DNA of 10,435 nt from a virus (Duplodnaviria > Heunggongvirae > Uroviricota > Caudoviricetes). The number at the start of each line of letters is the position of its first letter. Position 1 is the first letter of the stretch. The position numbers were made by a program, and so were the translations under genes. Shown here piece by piece: positions 1 to 7,023 of the stretch. The notes under the pieces are model-generated. The model searched no databases. It saw nothing but the letters and a program-made list of their open reading frames with translations, and was not told where the DNA came from. Location: positions 1 to 10,435 of IMG/VR virus record IMGVR_UViG_2671180556_000023. The stretch is one strand, 5' to 3'.

Positions 1-2343
1 TCAGGTTGTTGCAGGGTCGTCACATTTTGGCAGCCAGTCGCCGTAGCTTTCCTCTTTCAGCGTCAGGTTGGTCTGTATCCCCTGTTTGGTATGGCGCTTC
101 TCGTAATTCAGTCCGTATTCCTTCAGCATCACCGGCAGCCCCAGCCCGAACATTTTCAGACTGAGTACATTCCGGTAGCCGTTTGCCTCCATGTAGGCCA
201 GATAGGCGTGATAGAGGTATTTACGGTAGTTACGCGGGATGATACTGGCGTTCCCCATATACATGCCGCTGGTCTGCGGCAGGGTTTCCAGATAGCCGAT
301 AAAATCAAACGTCGGGTCGGCATCCCGTTTGATGTTCAGTGCCTCGTCTGAGTTCTGCTGGGACTGAAGCAGTGACCGGGCGAGCATCGGGTCGCTGAAC
401 TTCTGCATCAGGTGACGCACGATGACCGCCAGCTCGCGGGTGATTTTGTCCTTAAGCTGCGGGTCGCGCTCCTGCGGGGCTATCTGTTCCGGGAAGTGAA
501 TAATCACCCGCCGGCGTGACACGCCGCCGCTGCGGTCGGTGAAGCGCATCGGGTTATTGTTCACGGCCAGAATCACCGCCGGGATATGCGTGGAGTACGC
601 ATCCCGGTATTTCGGGTCAACGGACACCGCATCGCCGCCGGTGATGGCCTTGAGTCCGGCACCGTCGCCGCTCCATTTTTCCTGGTCCGGCAGGCGTATC
701 AGTGAGAAGCCAGTTAACGCGGCACGTTCACGCGGGGATTCCAGCGTCTCAATGGTGGCCGACGTGGCGTTATCCTCCCCGGCCAGCAGGGTGGCTATTT
801 CGGCCATGATACTTTTGCCGCTGCCGCCGGGACCGGTCACCTCCAGAAAGAGCTGCCAGTCATAGCGGTTTGCCAGCACCATAAACAGTGCGGCCAGAAT
901 CACGTCGCGTTTTTCCGCACGGCCACCGGCGGCACGGTCAAGCCAGCGCCAGAACGCGGGAGCGTGGGTTTCCAGCGTTTCACCGTCCACCGGCGGGGTG
1001 AAATCCACATCGCACAGGGTGCGCATCCAGTGTGACGGACTGTGCGGGTGGAACGTGCCGTTCTGCGTGTCGAGCACGCCGTTACGAAAGCCAATCAGGC
1101 AGCGGGAGGGGGCTTCCTGCTGCGGAATAATCAGCTTCAGGGTGTCCACCACGGAGGCCACCTTCCCGGAGGAGAACGGCGCACGCAGTCGCTGAAACAG
1201 CCCGGCCACATCCCGGGCAAAGTCCTGTGGCGGCAGCACCTTCCAGACACCATTTTCATAGCGGGACAGAAGCTGGCCGTTGGCATCGACCGCGAGCGCC
1301 TCGCCGTAATGCTCATAGATACGCATGGCCTTTTCGCTGGTACTCATGGCGGAAAACTCCGCTTCGCTCATGGTGTCGAACGGGCTTTCAGTCGGTGGCC
1401 GAATGGCATCGTAAATGGCCTTACGGGTGGCTTCCCCGCCGTACTGCGTGAAGGCATCATTCCAGTCACCGAAGACCGGCGGCAGGGCAACAACACCTTC
1501 ACACGCATCTGCGGCTGCGGCGGCTTTTTTCTGGCCGTCACCGCTGAGGTCACGGTCTGCGGCAAGGACAATCTGACAGGCCGGATGCTTCTGCCGGGCA
1601 AGTCTGGCCAGAGAAAGGAGGTTCACGGAAGAAAGCGCCACCATCACCGTTTCACCGGTCAGGTGATGCACGGTAAGTGCGGTCGCGTATCCCTCCGCTA
1701 TCCACAGACGTTTTCCGGCCTGGTTCTGTCCTTCAAGGGTGTGACAGGTGCCCCTGACCTGTCCGCCTTTCAGGGTGCGCTTACGGCCGTCAGCACTGAT
1801 TAACTGAAGGTTAACCAGTTCGCCGCTGTCGTCATACAGTGGCACCACAAGGTCACCGGCGCGCCAGCTCACGCCACCGGCTCTGTGTGTGCCGGTCAGC
1901 ATCCGGCATTCCCGGCCGGGAAAGCCCTTGCGGGTCAGGTAGGCGTTACCGGTTCCGGGACGGGTTTTCGCCATCAGGGTTTGTGCCAGTGCGGCGGCGT
2001 TCTTCCGGGCAGCGTCTGTTTCAGCACCGGCGGCGGCCGTCACTGCCGGGTCAGCCGGGTCAGCCGGGGGCAGGCTGCCGGTCACGGCAGCCACCTTTGT
2101 GGCCGCGTCGGATGGGGAGACACCAAACACCTTTTCAACCAGTTTCAGACCGTCACCGGCACCACACTGATTGCAGTACCAGGTGCCGCGCCCCTCCCTG
2201 TCATCAAAACGGAAGCGGTCACTCCCGCCACAGACCGGACAGGGCTGATGACGGTTTTTCAGCACCTGAATCCCCAGCGCCGGGAGAATACGCGGCCAGT
2301 GGCCGAGCGCATGGCTGACGGTGGCGGTTACGTTCATTTTCAT
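1..2343 (-). CDS. P4 alpha-type primase-helicase (replication protein), 780 aa, complete
   Basis: Full ORF with ATG at 2343 and TGA at 3-1; AAGGAG Shine-Dalgarno 9 nt upstream (2353-2358 region). N-terminal zinc-ribbon motif CPVCGG...CNQCG typical of primases; Walker A TGPGGSGKS in the C-terminal helicase half. Length is close to the 777 aa I recall for P4 alpha. Confidence 0.9.
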   Translation of the reverse strand: MKMNVTATVSHALGHWPRILPALGIQVLKNRHQPCPVCGGSDRFRFDDREGRGTWYCNQCGAGDGLKLVEKVFGVSPSDAATKVAAVTGSLPPADPADPAVTAAAGAETDAARKNAAALAQTLMAKTRPGTGNAYLTRKGFPGRECRMLTGTHRAGGVSWRAGDLVVPLYDDSGELVNLQLISADGRKRTLKGGQVRGTCHTLEGQNQAGKRLWIAEGYATALTVHHLTGETVMVALSSVNLLSLARLARQKHPACQIVLAADRDLSGDGQKKAAAAADACEGVVALPPVFGDWNDAFTQYGGEATRKAIYDAIRPPTESPFDTMSEAEFSAMSTSEKAMRIYEHYGEALAVDANGQLLSRYENGVWKVLPPQDFARDVAGLFQRLRAPFSSGKVASVVDTLKLIIPQQEAPSRCLIGFRNGVLDTQNGTFHPHSPSHWMRTLCDVDFTPPVDGETLETHAPAFWRWLDRAAGGRAEKRDVILAALFMVLANRYDWQLFLEVTGPGGSGKSIMAEIATLLAGEDNATSATIETLESPRERAALTGFSLIRLPDQEKWSGDGAGLKAITGGDAVSVDPKYRDAYSTHIPAVILAVNNNPMRFTDRSGGVSRRRVIIHFPEQIAPQERDPQLKDKITRELAVIVRHLMQKFSDPMLARSLLQSQQNSDEALNIKRDADPTFDFIGYLETLPQTSGMYMGNASIIPRNYRKYLYHAYLAYMEANGYRNVLSLKMFGLGLPVMLKEYGLNYEKRHTKQGIQTNLTLKEESYGDWLPKCDDPATT

Positions 2344-2357
2344 GGTGTTGTTCTCCT

Positions 2358-2678
2358 TCAGTGCAGTACCGGCGCTTTTATGTGACGGGCACAGAGTTCA
2401 TCCATCACAACCAGCCCGAGAAAGGACAGCGACGGCGCGGCCTTCAGGGGGCCGGATTCCATTAAATCTTCCAGCAGGGCACAGGCTATCTGACGCCCTT
2501 TTTCCTCACCGTGCTGGCGCAGATAAAAGCCCTCCAGCTCAGCGGCGATGGCCGCCTCCAGTGATTCAAGGGTGAGATGCGGGTAGCGGTGCTGACGTTC
2601 GCACACGGTCAGCCAGGCACAGGCGACAGCGCGACGGTAAAGGGCAGCGCGTAAGACGGGCGGTAAGGGTGTTTTCAT
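2358..2678 (-). CDS. Hypothetical 106-aa protein of the P4 left operon (size matches P4 orf106)
   Basis: ATG at 2678 preceded by GGAGG with 7-nt spacer; ends 14 nt before the alpha start. Assignment to P4 orf106 is by size and position only. Confidence 0.6.
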
Positions 2679-2813
2679 TTGTTTTCCTCCCTGTGACAGA
2701 TGACTGCATTCCGTGCCGGTTGCATTAACTGATAAGGCATATCTGCGTCTCCTGAAGACGTGCGTATCCCTGCGCGAATACGCACATTTAATTTTTCGGG
2801 TGTAGTTTTTTAA

Positions 2814-3269
2814 TTACAGATAATTGCGGTAACTGTTATCCGGGGTGATTTCCGGGTCAGGCTCCGTGCGGGGAATTTCCCGCCATTCCCGCGCCACCGG
2901 TGCCGCCCGGCTGGCCGGAACAGTGTCCTGCGGGTAAATATCCAGATATTTCTCCCGCCATTTCTGTAATTCCGGGTCTCCGGCCATTTCTTTCAGTACC
3001 GCATGCCGGTTTACGGGGCTGCGTTTAAACAGGTCAGGACGGTCACAGGTAAATTCCCGCAGAAAACGCCCCAGCGGGATGTCTGTGGTGCGCCCGTCGG
3101 CGAGGATACGCACAAGGATACTGAATTTACGGCGGTACGGGTTCCAGACAATTTCCGGGCAGCGGTACGGCATTTCCCACGGAATACCGTCTTCCAGAAT
3201 GCCGACCACGGCCACATCGGGAAAACCGGCAGAACGGTAAATCTCACCGGGCTGGGGAAAATCAAACAT
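2814..3269 (-). CDS. Hypothetical 151-aa protein (size and position match P4 orf151)
   Basis: ATG at 3269 overlaps the stop of the upstream ORF (ATGTTTGA), indicating translational coupling. Function not inferable from sequence. Confidence 0.7.
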   Translation of the reverse strand: MFDFPQPGEIYRSAGFPDVAVVGILEDGIPWEMPYRCPEIVWNPYRRKFSILVRILADGRTTDIPLGRFLREFTCDRPDLFKRSPVNRHAVLKEMAGDPELQKWREKYLDIYPQDTVPASRAAPVAREWREIPRTEPDPEITPDNSYRNYL

Positions 3270-3549
3270 GCGTCCTGTCTCCCCGGTCTTTCTGCTGGGC
3301 GAGAAAATCGCGGCACAGGCCTTTGGCTTTCAGCTCATTCAGCACAAAATCAATATCTTCATTCAGGTAGCTGAAAATATGCGGAATGTAGAGCTGATGC
3401 AGGCCGGAGAGTTCACGGTGAATCAAATCACCCCCAACAAACTGGGATACGGCGCTGGCGCGGTTGAGCTTATGGTAAGCCTCAATGCTGAGGTGTTCAC
3501 GGGCGTCATGACGCGCTGAGACGGTCTGAGGGGCTTTTTTATTACGCAC
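3262..3549 (-). CDS. Small protein, 95 aa if started at GTG 3549; possible epsilon-like (helper derepression) gene
   Basis: GTG at 3549-3547 preceded by GGAGG with 6-nt spacer and overlapping the kil stop (GTGCGTAA). An alternative in-frame ATG at 3594 gives 110 aa. The epsilon assignment is by position in the operon only. Confidence 0.5.
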
Positions 3550-3739
3550 GGGACACCTCCACCACCGGCAGACGGGCAGCAAGGGAGAGCACATAGTCAC
3601 GGACAAGGGAACGGCGGGCGCTGCGTTCATCACCGGCGACGGTGCGAAGCATGCAGATACGGGGATGACGGTCTGCGCGACGGACAGCCGCAAACACAAA
3701 GACAAATTCAGGGTGTGAGGGGGTAAGGGTTGTAGCCAT
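3542..3739 (-). CDS. kil: Kil-like 65-aa protein (annotated in databases as Icd-like cell division inhibitor)
   Basis: ATG at 3739 with AGGAGG 9 nt upstream; 65 aa, matching the published size of P4 kil; it is the 3' terminal part of the longer eta frame, as described for P4. Confidence 0.75.
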
Positions 3740-4141
3740 GATGGCAGCCTCCTGTGAATAGCAAATAACGCTATCGCCGGAGTTTCCACGCTCGATGGCG
3801 ATAGCCCAGACGGGGGTGGAAATACCGGCTTCACAGGATACCGGCCAGCCCGGAGGCTGCCCCGCCTGAGCTACCATTGACTCTGCGGCATAATGAGCGG
3901 ACGCGGGCAGGATGCACGGAATGCCATCTGCACGACTGACCACACACCACACCATAATCTGGCGCTCTGTGGCGTTGATTGCGACACAAAAAAAGACGCA
4001 TGGCGCGTCATATGTCGCCTGTGAATTGCTCGGGTTTCCACGCCCGGCTGCCGATTTTGCGGCAGCGGAAAAACTATATCCGCAAATGCCGGAAAAAGGC
4101 AAGCCAGAAAAAGGGAGTTTTTGCAGAGCGGGCATCATCAT
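3542..4141 (-). CDS. eta: Eta-like nested ORF, 199 aa, same frame as kil
   Basis: Three consecutive ATG codons at 4141-4133 (MMM) give 199, 198 or 197 aa, matching the published description of P4 eta with three likely start codons; the first ATG overlaps the vis stop (ATGA). The ORF-track start at 4186 is a non-ATG codon and is not used. Confidence 0.5.
3770..3805 (-). other. GC-rich stem-loop in the kil leader (9-bp stem, 18-nt loop), U-rich on its 3' side on the minus strand
   Basis: GCTATCGCC (3770-3778) pairs perfectly with GGCGATAGC (3797-3805). On the minus-strand RNA it is followed by GUUAUUUGCUAUU and lies about 30 nt upstream of the kil start. Confidence 0.4.
4073..4102 (-). promoter_or_regulatory. 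Candidate constitutive sigma70 promoter (PLE-like) inside eta, reading toward kil
   Basis: On the minus strand: -35 TTGCCT (4102-4097), 18-nt spacer, -10 TATAGT (4078-4073). It lies about 395 nt downstream of the predicted PLL start, consistent with the published P4 spacing of roughly 400 nt. Confidence 0.4.
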
Positions 4142-4404
4142 GCGTCGTACCCCCGTTTGCGTCCGGCGATGCGCCCGGCCATCCATGCGGTGACTTCAGA
4201 GTGCAGCCAGGCCACATTTTTACCGCCAAGACTCACCTGCGGCGGAAATTCCCCCTTACGGATGAGTTCATAGATGGTCGAGCGTGACAGGCCGCACAGG
4301 TGCATCACTTCCGGCAGGCGTAAAAAACGCTCCTGCGTGATGTCCGGCAGCGGCATCAGTGGTGTCACAGGGGCGGGAGACGGGGAAGAAAAAACAGCTT
4401 GCAT
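4138..4404 (-). CDS. vis: Vis/AlpA-family small helix-turn-helix regulator, 88 aa
   Basis: ATG at 4404 with GAGG 7 nt upstream; sequence ...[22 protein letters not shown]... is typical of AlpA/Vis-type HTH proteins; 88 aa matches P4 orf88. Confidence 0.85.
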
Positions 4405-4471
4405 CGGGCTACCTCGTTAATGTCCATACAGCACCGGATAAGTCCGTCCGGCTTCGGGTAGCGCTTTATTT

Positions 4472-4524
4472 TGTGAATATTTTCAGCAGACGCAACAGGG
4501 GGGATTTGTTCCGGCAGCCTTACA
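4472..4524 (-). promoter_or_regulatory. Candidate delta/Ogr-dependent late promoter for vis (PLL-like)
   Basis: Perfect TGT-N12-ACA dyad at 4507-4524; a second imperfect dyad at 4472-4489 (TGT-N12-CAG) about 37 bp closer to vis. The two centres fit the -55 and -18 positions described for P4 late promoters, predicting a start near 4460. Confidence 0.35.
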
Positions 4525-4550
4525 ATGGTTGTGTGTTTTTTGTTCATTTC

Positions 4551-4579
4551 CACTTAAAGTCATTTAAAGCCACTTAAAG
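4551..4579. repeat. Three helically phased direct repeats of C(A/T)(C/T)TTAAAG at 10-bp spacing
   Basis: cacttaaag (4551-4559), catttaaag (4561-4569), cacttaaag (4571-4579). Function unknown; lies between the PLL dyad and the iteron cluster. Confidence 0.5.
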
Positions 4580-4683
4580 CAATTTGTAATTTTTATAGTG
4601 AAATACAAATCGTTTCTTCTTATTCATTCCCGGCGAATTAATAAAAACAAACAGTAGTAAACAGCACAAAAAGTCCATGAGCG

Positions 4684-4787
4684 GGTGAACAGTGGTGAAC
4701 AGACGGTGAACAGTCATTACTGCGATTGTTCATCCTTTAACTTACTGTATTACTTATCTTTTTTATTAAGGTGAACAGAGGTGAACA
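4684..4787. repeat. crr-like cis replication region: cluster of TGTTCACC-type iterons
   Basis: GGTGAACA at 4684-4691, 4694-4701, 4705-4712, 4770-4777 and 4780-4787 (direct, 10-11 bp spacing), plus one near-inverted copy TGTTCATC at 4727-4734. The octamer TGTTCACC is the alpha-protein binding repeat described for P4 ori and crr. Confidence 0.7.
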
Positions 4788-4866
4788 GTAAAATATAAAA
4801 AAACAAACAGTAAGCCGGTTTTTCCTGCGACCTTTTCCTGGCTTGCCGGTGTGAGGATGAGTCTCC

Positions 4867-4922
4867 TGTGTCAGGGCTGGCACATCTGCAATGCGTCGTG
4901 TTGCTGTCCGGTGTACGTCACA
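4867..4922 (+). promoter_or_regulatory. Candidate delta/Ogr-dependent late promoter for sid (Psid-like) with two dyads
   Basis: TGT-N12-ACA at 4867-4884 and again at 4905-4922, centres 38 bp apart. These fit the -55 and -18 sites reported for P4 Psid and predict a start near 4931, 26 nt before the sid ATG. Confidence 0.45.
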
Positions 4923-4956
4923 ATTTTCTTAACCTGAAGTGACGAGGAGCCGGAAA

Positions 4957-5691
4957 ATGTCTGACCACACTATCCCTGAATATCTGCAACCCGCACTGGC
5001 ACAACTGGAAAAGGCCAGAGCCGCCCATCTTGAGAACGCCCGCCTGATGGATGAGACCGTCACGGCCATTGAACGGGCAGAGCAGGAAAAAAATGCGCTG
5101 GCGCAGGCCGACGGAAACGACGCTGACGACTGGCGCACGGCCTTTCGTGCAGCCGGTGGTGTCCTGAGCGACGAGCTGAAACAGCGCCACATTGAGCGCG
5201 TGGCACGCCGGGAGCTGGTACAGGAATATGACAATCTGGCCGTGGTGCTGAATTTTGAACGCGAACGCCTGAAAGGGGCGTGTGACAGCACGGCCACCGC
5301 CTACCGGAAGGCACATCATCACCTGCTGAGTCTGTATGCAGAGCATGAGCTGGAACACGCCCTGAATGAAACCTGTGAGGCGCTTGTCCGGGCAATGCAT
5401 CTGAGCATCCTGGTACAGGAAAATCCGCTCGCCAACACCACCGGCCATCAGGGCTACGTCGCACCGGAAAAGGCTGTCATGCAGCAGGTGAAATCATCGC
5501 TGGAACAGAAAATAAAACAGATGCAAATCAGCCTCACCGGCGAGCCGGTTCTCCGGCTGACCGGACTGTCAGCGGCAACACTCCCGCACATGGATTATGA
5601 GGTGGCAGGCACACCGGCACAGCGCAAGGTGTGGCAGGACAAAATAGACCAGCAGGGAGCAGAGCTTAAGGCCAGAGGACTGCTGTCATGA
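4957..5691 (+). CDS. sid: Sid-like capsid size-determination (external scaffold) protein, 244 aa
   Basis: ATG at 4957 with GAGGAG 8 nt upstream; the upstream GTG at 4939 lacks a ribosome-binding site. 244 aa matches P4 Sid; stop overlaps the delta start (ATGA). Confidence 0.85.
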   Translation: MSDHTIPEYLQPALAQLEKARAAHLENARLMDETVTAIERAEQEKNALAQADGNDADDWRTAFRAAGGVLSDELKQRHIERVARRELVQEYDNLAVVLNFERERLKGACDSTATAYRKAHHHLLSLYAEHELEHALNETCEALVRAMHLSILVQENPLANTTGHQGYVAPEKAVMQQVKSSLEQKIKQMQISLTGEPVLRLTGLSAATLPHMDYEVAGTPAQRKVWQDKIDQQGAELKARGLLS

Positions 5692-6188
5692 TTTACTGCC
5701 CGTCGTGTGGACATGTTGCTCATACCCGTCGCGCACATTTCATGGACGATGGCACCAAGATAATGATTGCACAGTGCCGGAATATTTATTGCTCTGCGAC
5801 ATTTGAAGCGAGTGAAAGCTTTTTCTCTGACTGTAAAGATTCAGGAATGGAATACATTTCAGGCAAACAGAGATACCGCGATTCACTGACTTCTGCCTCC
5901 GGCAGTATGAAACGCCCGAAAAGAATGCTTGTTACCGGATATTGTTGTCGGAGATGTAAAGGCCTTGCACTGTCAAGAACATCGCGGCGTCTGTCTCAGG
6001 AAGTCACTGAACGTTTTTATGTGTGCACGGATCCGGGCTGTGGTCTGGTGTTTAAAACGCTTCAGACCATCAACCGCTTCATTGTCCGCCCGGTCACGCC
6101 GGACGAACTGGCAGAAAGCCTGCATGAAAAACAGGAACTGCCGCCAGTACGGTTAAAAACACAATCATATTCGCTGCGTCTGGAATGA
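5688..6188 (+). CDS. delta: Delta-like late transcription activator (tandem Ogr-type zinc finger), 166 aa
   Basis: Two Ogr-like zinc-finger units (CPSCGH...C..IYC and CCRRC...C..PGC); 166 aa matches P4 delta; translationally coupled to sid. Confidence 0.9.
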   Translation: MIYCPSCGHVAHTRRAHFMDDGTKIMIAQCRNIYCSATFEASESFFSDCKDSGMEYISGKQRYRDSLTSASGSMKRPKRMLVTGYCCRRCKGLALSRTSRRLSQEVTERFYVCTDPGCGLVFKTLQTINRFIVRPVTPDELAESLHEKQELPPVRLKTQSYSLRLE

Positions 6189-6261
6189 GGGCTGCCGGTT
6201 AACCCCGGCCGTCGCCGCACACCGTATTTTTATTCTTCAGCATGATGAGAAAGAGATAACG

Positions 6262-6834
6262 ATGGAAAGCACAGCCTTACAGCAGGCCTTTGACACCTGT
6301 CAGAATAACAAAGCAGCATGGCTGCAACGCAAAAATGAGCTGGCTGCGGCCGAACAGGAATATCTGCGGCTTCTGTCAGGAGAAGGCAGAAACGTCAGTC
6401 GCCTGGACGAATTACGCAATATTATCGAAGTCAGAAAATGGCAGGTGAATCAGGCCGCCGGTCGTTATATTCGTTCGCATGAAGCCGTTCAGCATATCAG
6501 CATCCGCGACCGGCTGAATGATTTTATGCAGCAGCACGGCACAGCACTGGCGGCGGCACTGGCACCGGAGCTGATGGGCTACAGTGAGCTGACGGCCATT
6601 GCCCGAAACTGTGCCATACAGCGTGCCACAGATGCCCTGCGTGAAGCCCTTTTGTCCTGGCTTGCGAAGGGGGAAAAAATTAATTATTCCGCACAGGATA
6701 GCGACATTTTAACGGCCATCGGATTCAGGCCTGACGCGGCTTCGGTGGATGACAGCCGTGAAAAATTCACCCCTGCGCAGAACATGATTTTTTCGCGCAA
6801 AAGTGCGCAACTGGCATCACATCAGTCTGTGTAA
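6262..6834 (+). CDS. psu: Psu-like polarity suppression / capsid decoration protein, 190 aa
   Basis: ATG at 6262, TAA at 6832-6834; 190 aa matches P4 Psu and the N-terminus MESTALQQAFDTCQNNKAAWLQRKNELAAAEQEYL is as I recall for Psu. Confidence 0.85.
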   Translation: MESTALQQAFDTCQNNKAAWLQRKNELAAAEQEYLRLLSGEGRNVSRLDELRNIIEVRKWQVNQAAGRYIRSHEAVQHISIRDRLNDFMQQHGTALAAALAPELMGYSELTAIARNCAIQRATDALREALLSWLAKGEKINYSAQDSDILTAIGFRPDAASVDDSREKFTPAQNMIFSRKSAQLASHQSV

Positions 6835-6867
6835 AACTCCCCGAAAATCCGCCCGTTTTTACTGAAA

Positions 6868-6898
6868 AAAGCCATGCATCGATAAGGTGCATGGCTTT
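6868..6898. terminator. Stem-loop downstream of psu (11-bp stem, 9-nt loop), weak terminator candidate
   Basis: aaAGCCATGCA (6868-6878) pairs with TGCATGGCTtt (6888-6898). The U-tract is weak on both strands, so terminator function is uncertain. Confidence 0.3.
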
Positions 6899-6979
6899 GC
6901 ATGCGTTTTCCTGACTCATTTTCTGCAGATCAGGCCACGCCCGGCACGGCCTGAGCGTGACTGTGCAACTGCATTAAAA

Positions 6980-6999
6980 CCGCCCTGCAAAGCGGGCGG
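6980..6999 (-). terminator. GC-rich hairpin followed by UUUU on the minus strand, just past cos; candidate terminator for the cargo operon
   Basis: CCGCCC (6980-6985) pairs with GGGCGG (6994-6999), 8-nt loop; on the minus strand the hairpin is followed by TTTTAATGC. Confidence 0.35.
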
Positions 7000-7017
7000 G
7001 CGAGGCGGGGAAAGCAC
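6999..7017. other. cos site: 19-nt P2/P4-type cohesive end
   Basis: GGCGAGGCGGGGAAAGCAC at 6999-7017 matches the 19-nt cohesive end sequence I recall for P2 and P4; it sits about 165 bp after psu, as in P4. Confidence 0.75.
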
Positions 7018-7023
7018 TGCGCG

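Follow-up and report, generated by a model that had tools for sequence, protein, structure and literature searches.

Positions 3262–3549 on the minus strand of the window analysed here, a stretch of 10,435 nucleotides, very probably hold epsilon from a P4-type satellite prophage in E. coli, with GTG 3549 as its start codon and a protein of 95 residues as its product. Judged by sequence comparison, translation starts at this GTG and not at the ATG at 3594, and the ambiguity between the two codons is resolved. A sequence-only reading of the same DNA had left that choice open, with the size of the protein depending on it. The ambiguity does not survive, because profile models, homologues, the pattern of wobble variation and in-frame stop codons all favour GTG 3549; the comparative data give an epsilon-sized product of 95 aa. 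The gene is already known, and neither it nor its size is new. The features of the region are as follows.

3262–3549, minus strand: epsilon (helper derepression protein, antirepressor E), 95 codons and a stop with a GTG start; from the P4 annotation, the PGAP call, PF25738 and codon-position variation.
3547–3549, minus strand: epsilon start codon GTG, at the aligned start codons of homologues and at position 1 of the Pfam profile.
3554–3560, minus strand: Shine–Dalgarno sequence GGAGGTG, with GGAGG at 3560–3556, 6 nt before the GTG; from the strand reading, duplex energy and conservation.
3542–3549, minus strand: 8-nt overlap of the epsilon start and the kil stop, GTGCGTAA; possible translational coupling.
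3542–3739, minus strand: kil, an Icd-like cell-division inhibitor of 65 aa, with ATG 3739 behind AGGAGG; from NF033153, tblastn and wobble variation.
3592–3594, minus strand: rejected alternative ATG that would give 110 aa; without Shine–Dalgarno pairing or conservation.
2814–3269, minus strand: orf151, the next gene of the operon after epsilon, whose ATG overlaps the epsilon stop.
3262–3269, minus strand: 8-nt overlap of the epsilon stop and the orf151 start, ATGTTTGA; from the strand reading, the ORF list and the P4 annotation.
3794–3881, minus strand: C4-type antisense RNA (the P4 cI immunity RNA), which precedes kil in the operon; from Rfam RF01695.

The geometry given by the sequence-only reading was accurate. 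Read on the minus strand, the coordinates of the GTG, of its GGAGG site and of the 95-aa product all hold, the GTG lies in an 8-nt overlap that takes in the kil stop TAA (3544–3542), and the ATG at 3594 would indeed give 110 aa and a 53-nt overlap with kil. The epsilon stop is the TGA at 3264–3262, and the ORF from GTG 3549 spans 288 nt.

The identity of the gene was established by comparison with satellite phage P4. The 901 bases around epsilon are 98.9% identical to P4 (X02534, X51522 and NC_001609), and positions 1–6998 of the window are collinear with P4 4636–11624 at 98.2% identity. All three P4 records annotate an "epsilon gene product (AA 1-95)" on the stretch matching 3549–3262, overlapping the upstream ORF by 8 nt and ORF151 downstream by 8 nt; the RefSeq name is "helper derepression protein" (NP_042039). 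The copy in the window shares with P4 the GTG start, the Shine–Dalgarno site, both flanking overlaps and the order kil, epsilon, orf151, orf106, alpha. A base-by-base alignment shows a start region identical to that of P4 and two differences inside the ORF, one synonymous and one replacing R36 of P4 by Q36, a conservative change, which leaves 94 of 95 residues identical. At codon 36 (3442–3444, minus strand) the window reads CAG (Gln) where the P4 reference reads CGG (Arg); Gln36 is the form found in WP_001244665.1 and in most database relatives.

Unlike P4 itself, the copy here is a prophage in an E. coli chromosome, and the window departs from P4 beyond 6998. Positions 6999–10435 have no P4 match in the phage collection and presumably represent the variable cargo or integration side of the satellite. 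A 499-base part of the region occurs at at least 95% identity in 976 of 5,426 complete E. coli genomes and is always chromosomal. In one of these genomes (NZ_CP021726) it is 100% identical, and the NCBI pipeline PGAP calls the same 288-nt CDS there (WP_001244665.1, named "derepression protein" in newer annotations).

Profile searches lead to the same product. PF25738, "Derepression protein family", has 95 positions, and residues 1–95 of the short form align with profile positions 1–95 at 170.3 bits against a cut-off of 27. In the 110-aa form only residues 17–110 align, with profile positions 2–95. PHROG 10016 likewise aligns residues 1–95 of 95 with epsilon; NCBIfam returned no model for epsilon. 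The next genes are the 151-aa ORF and a 106-aa DUF5375 ORF (orf106/cnr), and the locus follows the left operon of P4 (cI RNA, kil, epsilon, orf151, orf106/cnr, alpha primase) in position. The locus thus has the features of the epsilon family, namely a full-length profile match, a size of about 95 aa and a start that overlaps the stop of an Icd-like gene, and the labels used in the sequence-only reading are right.

The label kil for the upstream ORF is reasonable as well, because it matches NCBIfam NF033153 (phage_ICD_like, "host cell division inhibitor Icd-like") at 72.1 bits against a cut-off of 25 and because tblastn matches it to cA/gp32 of N15 and icd of PY54. The NF033153 match covers residues 146–193 of a 199-aa ORF, which correspond to residues 12–59 of the 65-aa kil. 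As in P4, the kil product would be toxic or inhibit division when expressed.

The two candidate starts differ sharply in their ribosome-binding signals. For each codon we calculated how well the preceding 18 nt can pair at best with the 16S rRNA tail. GTG 3549 gives −10.6 kcal/mol, a signal that exceeds chance, since only 0.56% of all positions, counted over both strands of the window, pair this well. The best pairing at ATG 3594 is +0.6 kcal/mol, in agreement with the remark in the sequence-only reading that this codon has no obvious ribosome-binding site. The ATG is one of eleven in-frame ATG, GTG or TTG codons upstream of 3549, and among the others, up to the upstream stop, none pairs better than −4.3 kcal/mol. 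Upstream of GTG 3549 the epsilon frame lacks a stop over 108 codons, a stretch that overlaps kil and the C4 RNA, and the ORF list extends it to a GTG at 3834 that would give 190 aa. Since GTG initiates less well than ATG and these 108 codons are open, gene callers sometimes report longer epsilon products, as in P0001, P0044, P0045 and P0074. The 110-aa form and the longer forms from GTG or TTG codons up to 3834 were rejected as candidates; they have neither a Shine–Dalgarno site nor conservation.

Translation from ATG 3594 would yield 110 residues, with a 15-residue N-terminal extension rich in Cys and Trp and the 53-nt overlap with kil. ATG is the canonical start codon and the frame is open from 3594 to 3549 in the window, which speaks for this form, but its Shine–Dalgarno pairing is absent and its extension lies outside both the Pfam and the PHROG models. 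The shorter ORF has also been made on its own. A synthetic, codon-optimised 288-nt ORF (MRNKKAPQ...THV), expressed from a rhamnose promoter with a synthetic RBS, is according to its authors fully functional in inducing P2 (PMC12239096, with supplement). The 95 residues are thus reportedly enough, which argues against a need for the longer form.

Homologues at some distance from P4 were used to place the start independently. Loci were gathered from a single-protein contig scan (7 loci), then protein by protein, and then from IMG/VR. The distant ones come from Serratia, Buttiauxella, Salmonella, Edwardsiella, Enterobacter, Citrobacter, Klebsiella, Scandinavium and others, and their proteins are 55–76% identical to epsilon. 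Two loci, L008 and L100, were left out of the conclusions, their start column not being placeable without gaps. The alignment with P4 epsilon and its homologues, which the sequence-only reading had proposed as a check, puts the start column at GTG 3549. Among 90 database relatives, the intact ones are 93–99 aa long and begin at this column. All 11 distinct distant loci that share this arrangement (L006, L007, L010, L012, L014 and L017–L022) have ATG at the codon aligned to the GTG, with GGAGG at the same distance before it. Counted from the first base of the epsilon start, the Icd-like stop falls 5, 8 or 11 nt further on in every locus compared, and the junction of the epsilon stop with the orf151 start is conserved in 11 of 12.

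The homologues in P4-like satellites of Salmonella, Citrobacter, Enterobacter, Klebsiella, Serratia, Buttiauxella and Edwardsiella thus share with P4 the position after an Icd-like gene, the GGAGG spacing and the stop/start overlap. These "derepression proteins" of 93–99 aa start with ATG, whereas the P4/E. coli lineage has GTG. Many carry a 4-residue insertion after residue 15, and the N-terminal 8 residues vary.

The upstream ATG does not share this conservation. It lies 45 nt before the GTG and consists of the end of a kil Tyr codon, TAT, and the following G. In five of the 11 distant loci (L007, L010, L014, L019 and L022) it is replaced by ACG or ACA, the kil frame having the synonymous TAC. 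L018 keeps the ATG, with an in-frame TAG four codons on and 11 codons before the start. The divergent homologue L016 has ATG at the aligned start and a TGA five codons upstream.

The pattern of substitutions points to the same codon. We expressed variation as mean pairwise differences for each codon position of the epsilon frame. Over the 90 nt upstream of the Shine–Dalgarno sequence (−102 to −13) the values for positions 1, 2 and 3 are 0.042, 0.397 and 0.059; from epsilon codon 4 to the end they are 0.212, 0.182 and 0.468. Position 2 of the epsilon frame is the wobble position of kil, and each change there alters the hypothetical extension. Variation therefore falls on the kil wobble position upstream and on the third position inside the ORF, which means that the phase of selection switches at the start codon. 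The 95-aa ORF itself is under purifying selection. The sequence-only reading had pointed to homologues conserved upstream of 3549 in the epsilon frame as evidence against the GTG; what is found there is variation of 0.397 at the second codon position, and the extension is not conserved as protein.

Close alleles add natural in-frame stops. Among the 80 close alleles from IMG/VR, most of them 97–99% identical, the start is GTG in 76 and ATG in three, and L100 is not in register. A G-to-A change in 11 of the 80 puts a TGA into the epsilon frame at −15, downstream of ATG 3594 but ahead of GTG 3549, and leaves the GTG ORF intact. Taken with the missing ATG in five distant homologues and the TAG in L018, these alleles largely refute the 110-aa reading by comparison of sequences, and we give that reading practically no chance. 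As regards kil, the TGA-bearing alleles (11 of 80, IMG/VR L025–L104) have a GTG codon changed to ATG (Val to Met, window 3562–3564). In seven of these 11 the Shine–Dalgarno sequence is weakened to GGGGG.

A second possibility is that ribosomes use both starts, making mostly the 95-aa protein and, in those P4-type alleles that have the ATG and whose frame is open, a little of the 110-aa form as well. Of the 80 close alleles, 76 keep the ATG at −45 and most have an open frame, and leaky initiation inside translated regions is compatible with the sequence. However, the ATG is kept because TAT is the kil Tyr codon, ribosomes translating kil would run through ATG 3594, and initiation there is without other support. 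The persistence of alleles with the TGA at −15 also implies that a long form is dispensable. We consider use of both starts very improbable, and GTG 3549 is retained as the start.

For annotation, epsilon should be given as 95 aa from GTG 3549, and the 110-aa form should not be passed on. The argument can be reused for calling starts in other overlapping phage genes; it combines an ATG at the aligned position in other genera, a switch of the wobble frame at the start, and natural in-frame stops upstream. Frameshifts in kil also account for kil'–epsilon fusion proteins in databases, namely P0001 (156 aa; a group of 100 member sequences), P0044, P0045 and P0074.

The arrangement of the start suggests a link to the translation of kil. 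Epsilon is the third element of a leftward operon composed of the cI/C4 RNA, kil, epsilon, orf151, orf106 (cnr) and alpha, and ribosomes that finish kil, well placed to restart at the GTG, probably help to load it. Because the start and the kil stop overlap by 8 nt, epsilon translation is probably coupled to that of kil. An RNA hairpin that would mask the start and so make coupling obligatory was sought and is not supported, since shuffled sequences fold at least as stably as this one, whose minimum free energy is −39 kcal/mol (z = 0.52).

Coupling could be stricter than this. Epsilon may be translated only by termination and reinitiation after kil, with the GGAGG merely holding the ribosomes in place, so that output would depend on kil and thus on the cI RNA. 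The offset between kil stop and epsilon start, kept at 5–11 nt in all loci, fits such a scheme, as do the similar overlap at the epsilon/orf151 junction and the combination, also found in P1 immI, of an Icd-like kil with a C4-family RNA upstream. The Shine–Dalgarno sequence is nevertheless strong enough for independent initiation, and the start is left unmasked by structure. Strict dependence on reinitiation is conceivable, though we think it rather unlikely; it concerns the mode of initiation and not the site, and is compatible with a start at GTG 3549.

The order of genes at the epsilon locus parallels that of the P1 immI operon. Descriptions of P1 immI (c4 RNA, icd, ant) have it act by way of icd translation. 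The same logic appears in P1/P7 immI, in the secondary immunity region (cA/icd) of N15 and PY54 and here, with a C4-family RNA, a small Icd-like protein and an overlapping antirepressor gene. Epsilon differs from P1 Ant in that no sequence relation was detected in any search, and in that its target is the repressor of the helper P2 and not that of its own element. By analogy with the gating of ant by icd in P1, the GTG of the P4/E. coli lineage, derived from an ancestral ATG, and the overlap with kil might hold epsilon output low and tied to kil, with derepression gated by the cI/C4 RNA; we offer this as a tentative and somewhat doubtful suggestion.

The function of the protein is known from P4, whose E protein is an antirepressor that binds the P2 C repressor and derepresses P2 (PMC2995052). 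With 94 of 95 residues identical to P4 E, we infer that the allele in the window also binds P2 C and derepresses the helper. The target of the E protein would be the C repressor made by a P2-type helper prophage in the cell, and binding would derepress that prophage.

An AlphaFold model built with 23 homologues shows four helices and a disordered segment at residues 1–11, with a moderate pLDDT of 73, and epsilon is accordingly predicted to be a mostly helical protein. No mechanism was drawn from this model because its confidence is only moderate. Among PDB entries no relative was found by sequence (best E = 0.8), and none by fold with a Foldseek E of 0.001 or lower.

The region upstream of kil is occupied by RNA genes. 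Rfam identifies the C4 RNA (RF01695) at 3794–3881 (76.6 bits against a gathering score of 45), isrK at 3989–4066 and a c4-a1b1 target at 4027–4079. Over 3740–4141 on the minus strand a protein of 137 aa is annotated in P4 ("cI gene product"; in RefSeq "transcriptional repressor"), and PGAP calls a 199-aa "Icd-like protein". In 12 loci, the sequence upstream of ATG 3739 is without a codon-position pattern, all three positions varying alike (0.16–0.44). From about 3730 to 3551, in the kil frame and in the same 12 loci, variation is concentrated at the wobble position (0.05–0.11, 0.05–0.10 and 0.32–0.45). Within the long upstream ORF, the coding signature is therefore seen only in the part that encodes the 65-aa kil. 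The 137-aa and 199-aa protein calls look over-extended across the RNA genes, because flat codon-position variation and the C4, isrK and c4-a1b1 matches fall in the same stretch.

The Pfam model PF10554 (Phage_ASH) matches residues 37–161 of a 214-aa ORF, window 3704–4078 on the minus strand. The match lies mostly in the RNA-gene region and includes only the first 12 residues of kil, and PF10554 may largely capture translated RNA genes. A survey of P4-like satellites equates Ash with epsilon and uses PF10554 as the epsilon profile (PMC8628076). The "epsilon" marker of that survey is the adjoining immunity/kil region, and the real epsilon matches PF25738.

Some relatives lie outside the usual setting. 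L016 (1501–1740) encodes a divergent epsilon homologue of 79 aa in a different element, with a fragment of a P2-type capsid gene upstream, a 144-aa ORF of unknown function where kil would be and, further on, a gene for a DUF927 primase; its ATG start overlaps the upstream stop by 8 nt. Epsilon genes that are 99% identical were also found on 4–5 kb contigs of metagenome-assembled genomes labelled Ferruginibacter sp., Clostridiales bacterium and "bacterium" (L003, L004 and L005), and these contigs are most likely mis-binned E. coli satellite DNA.
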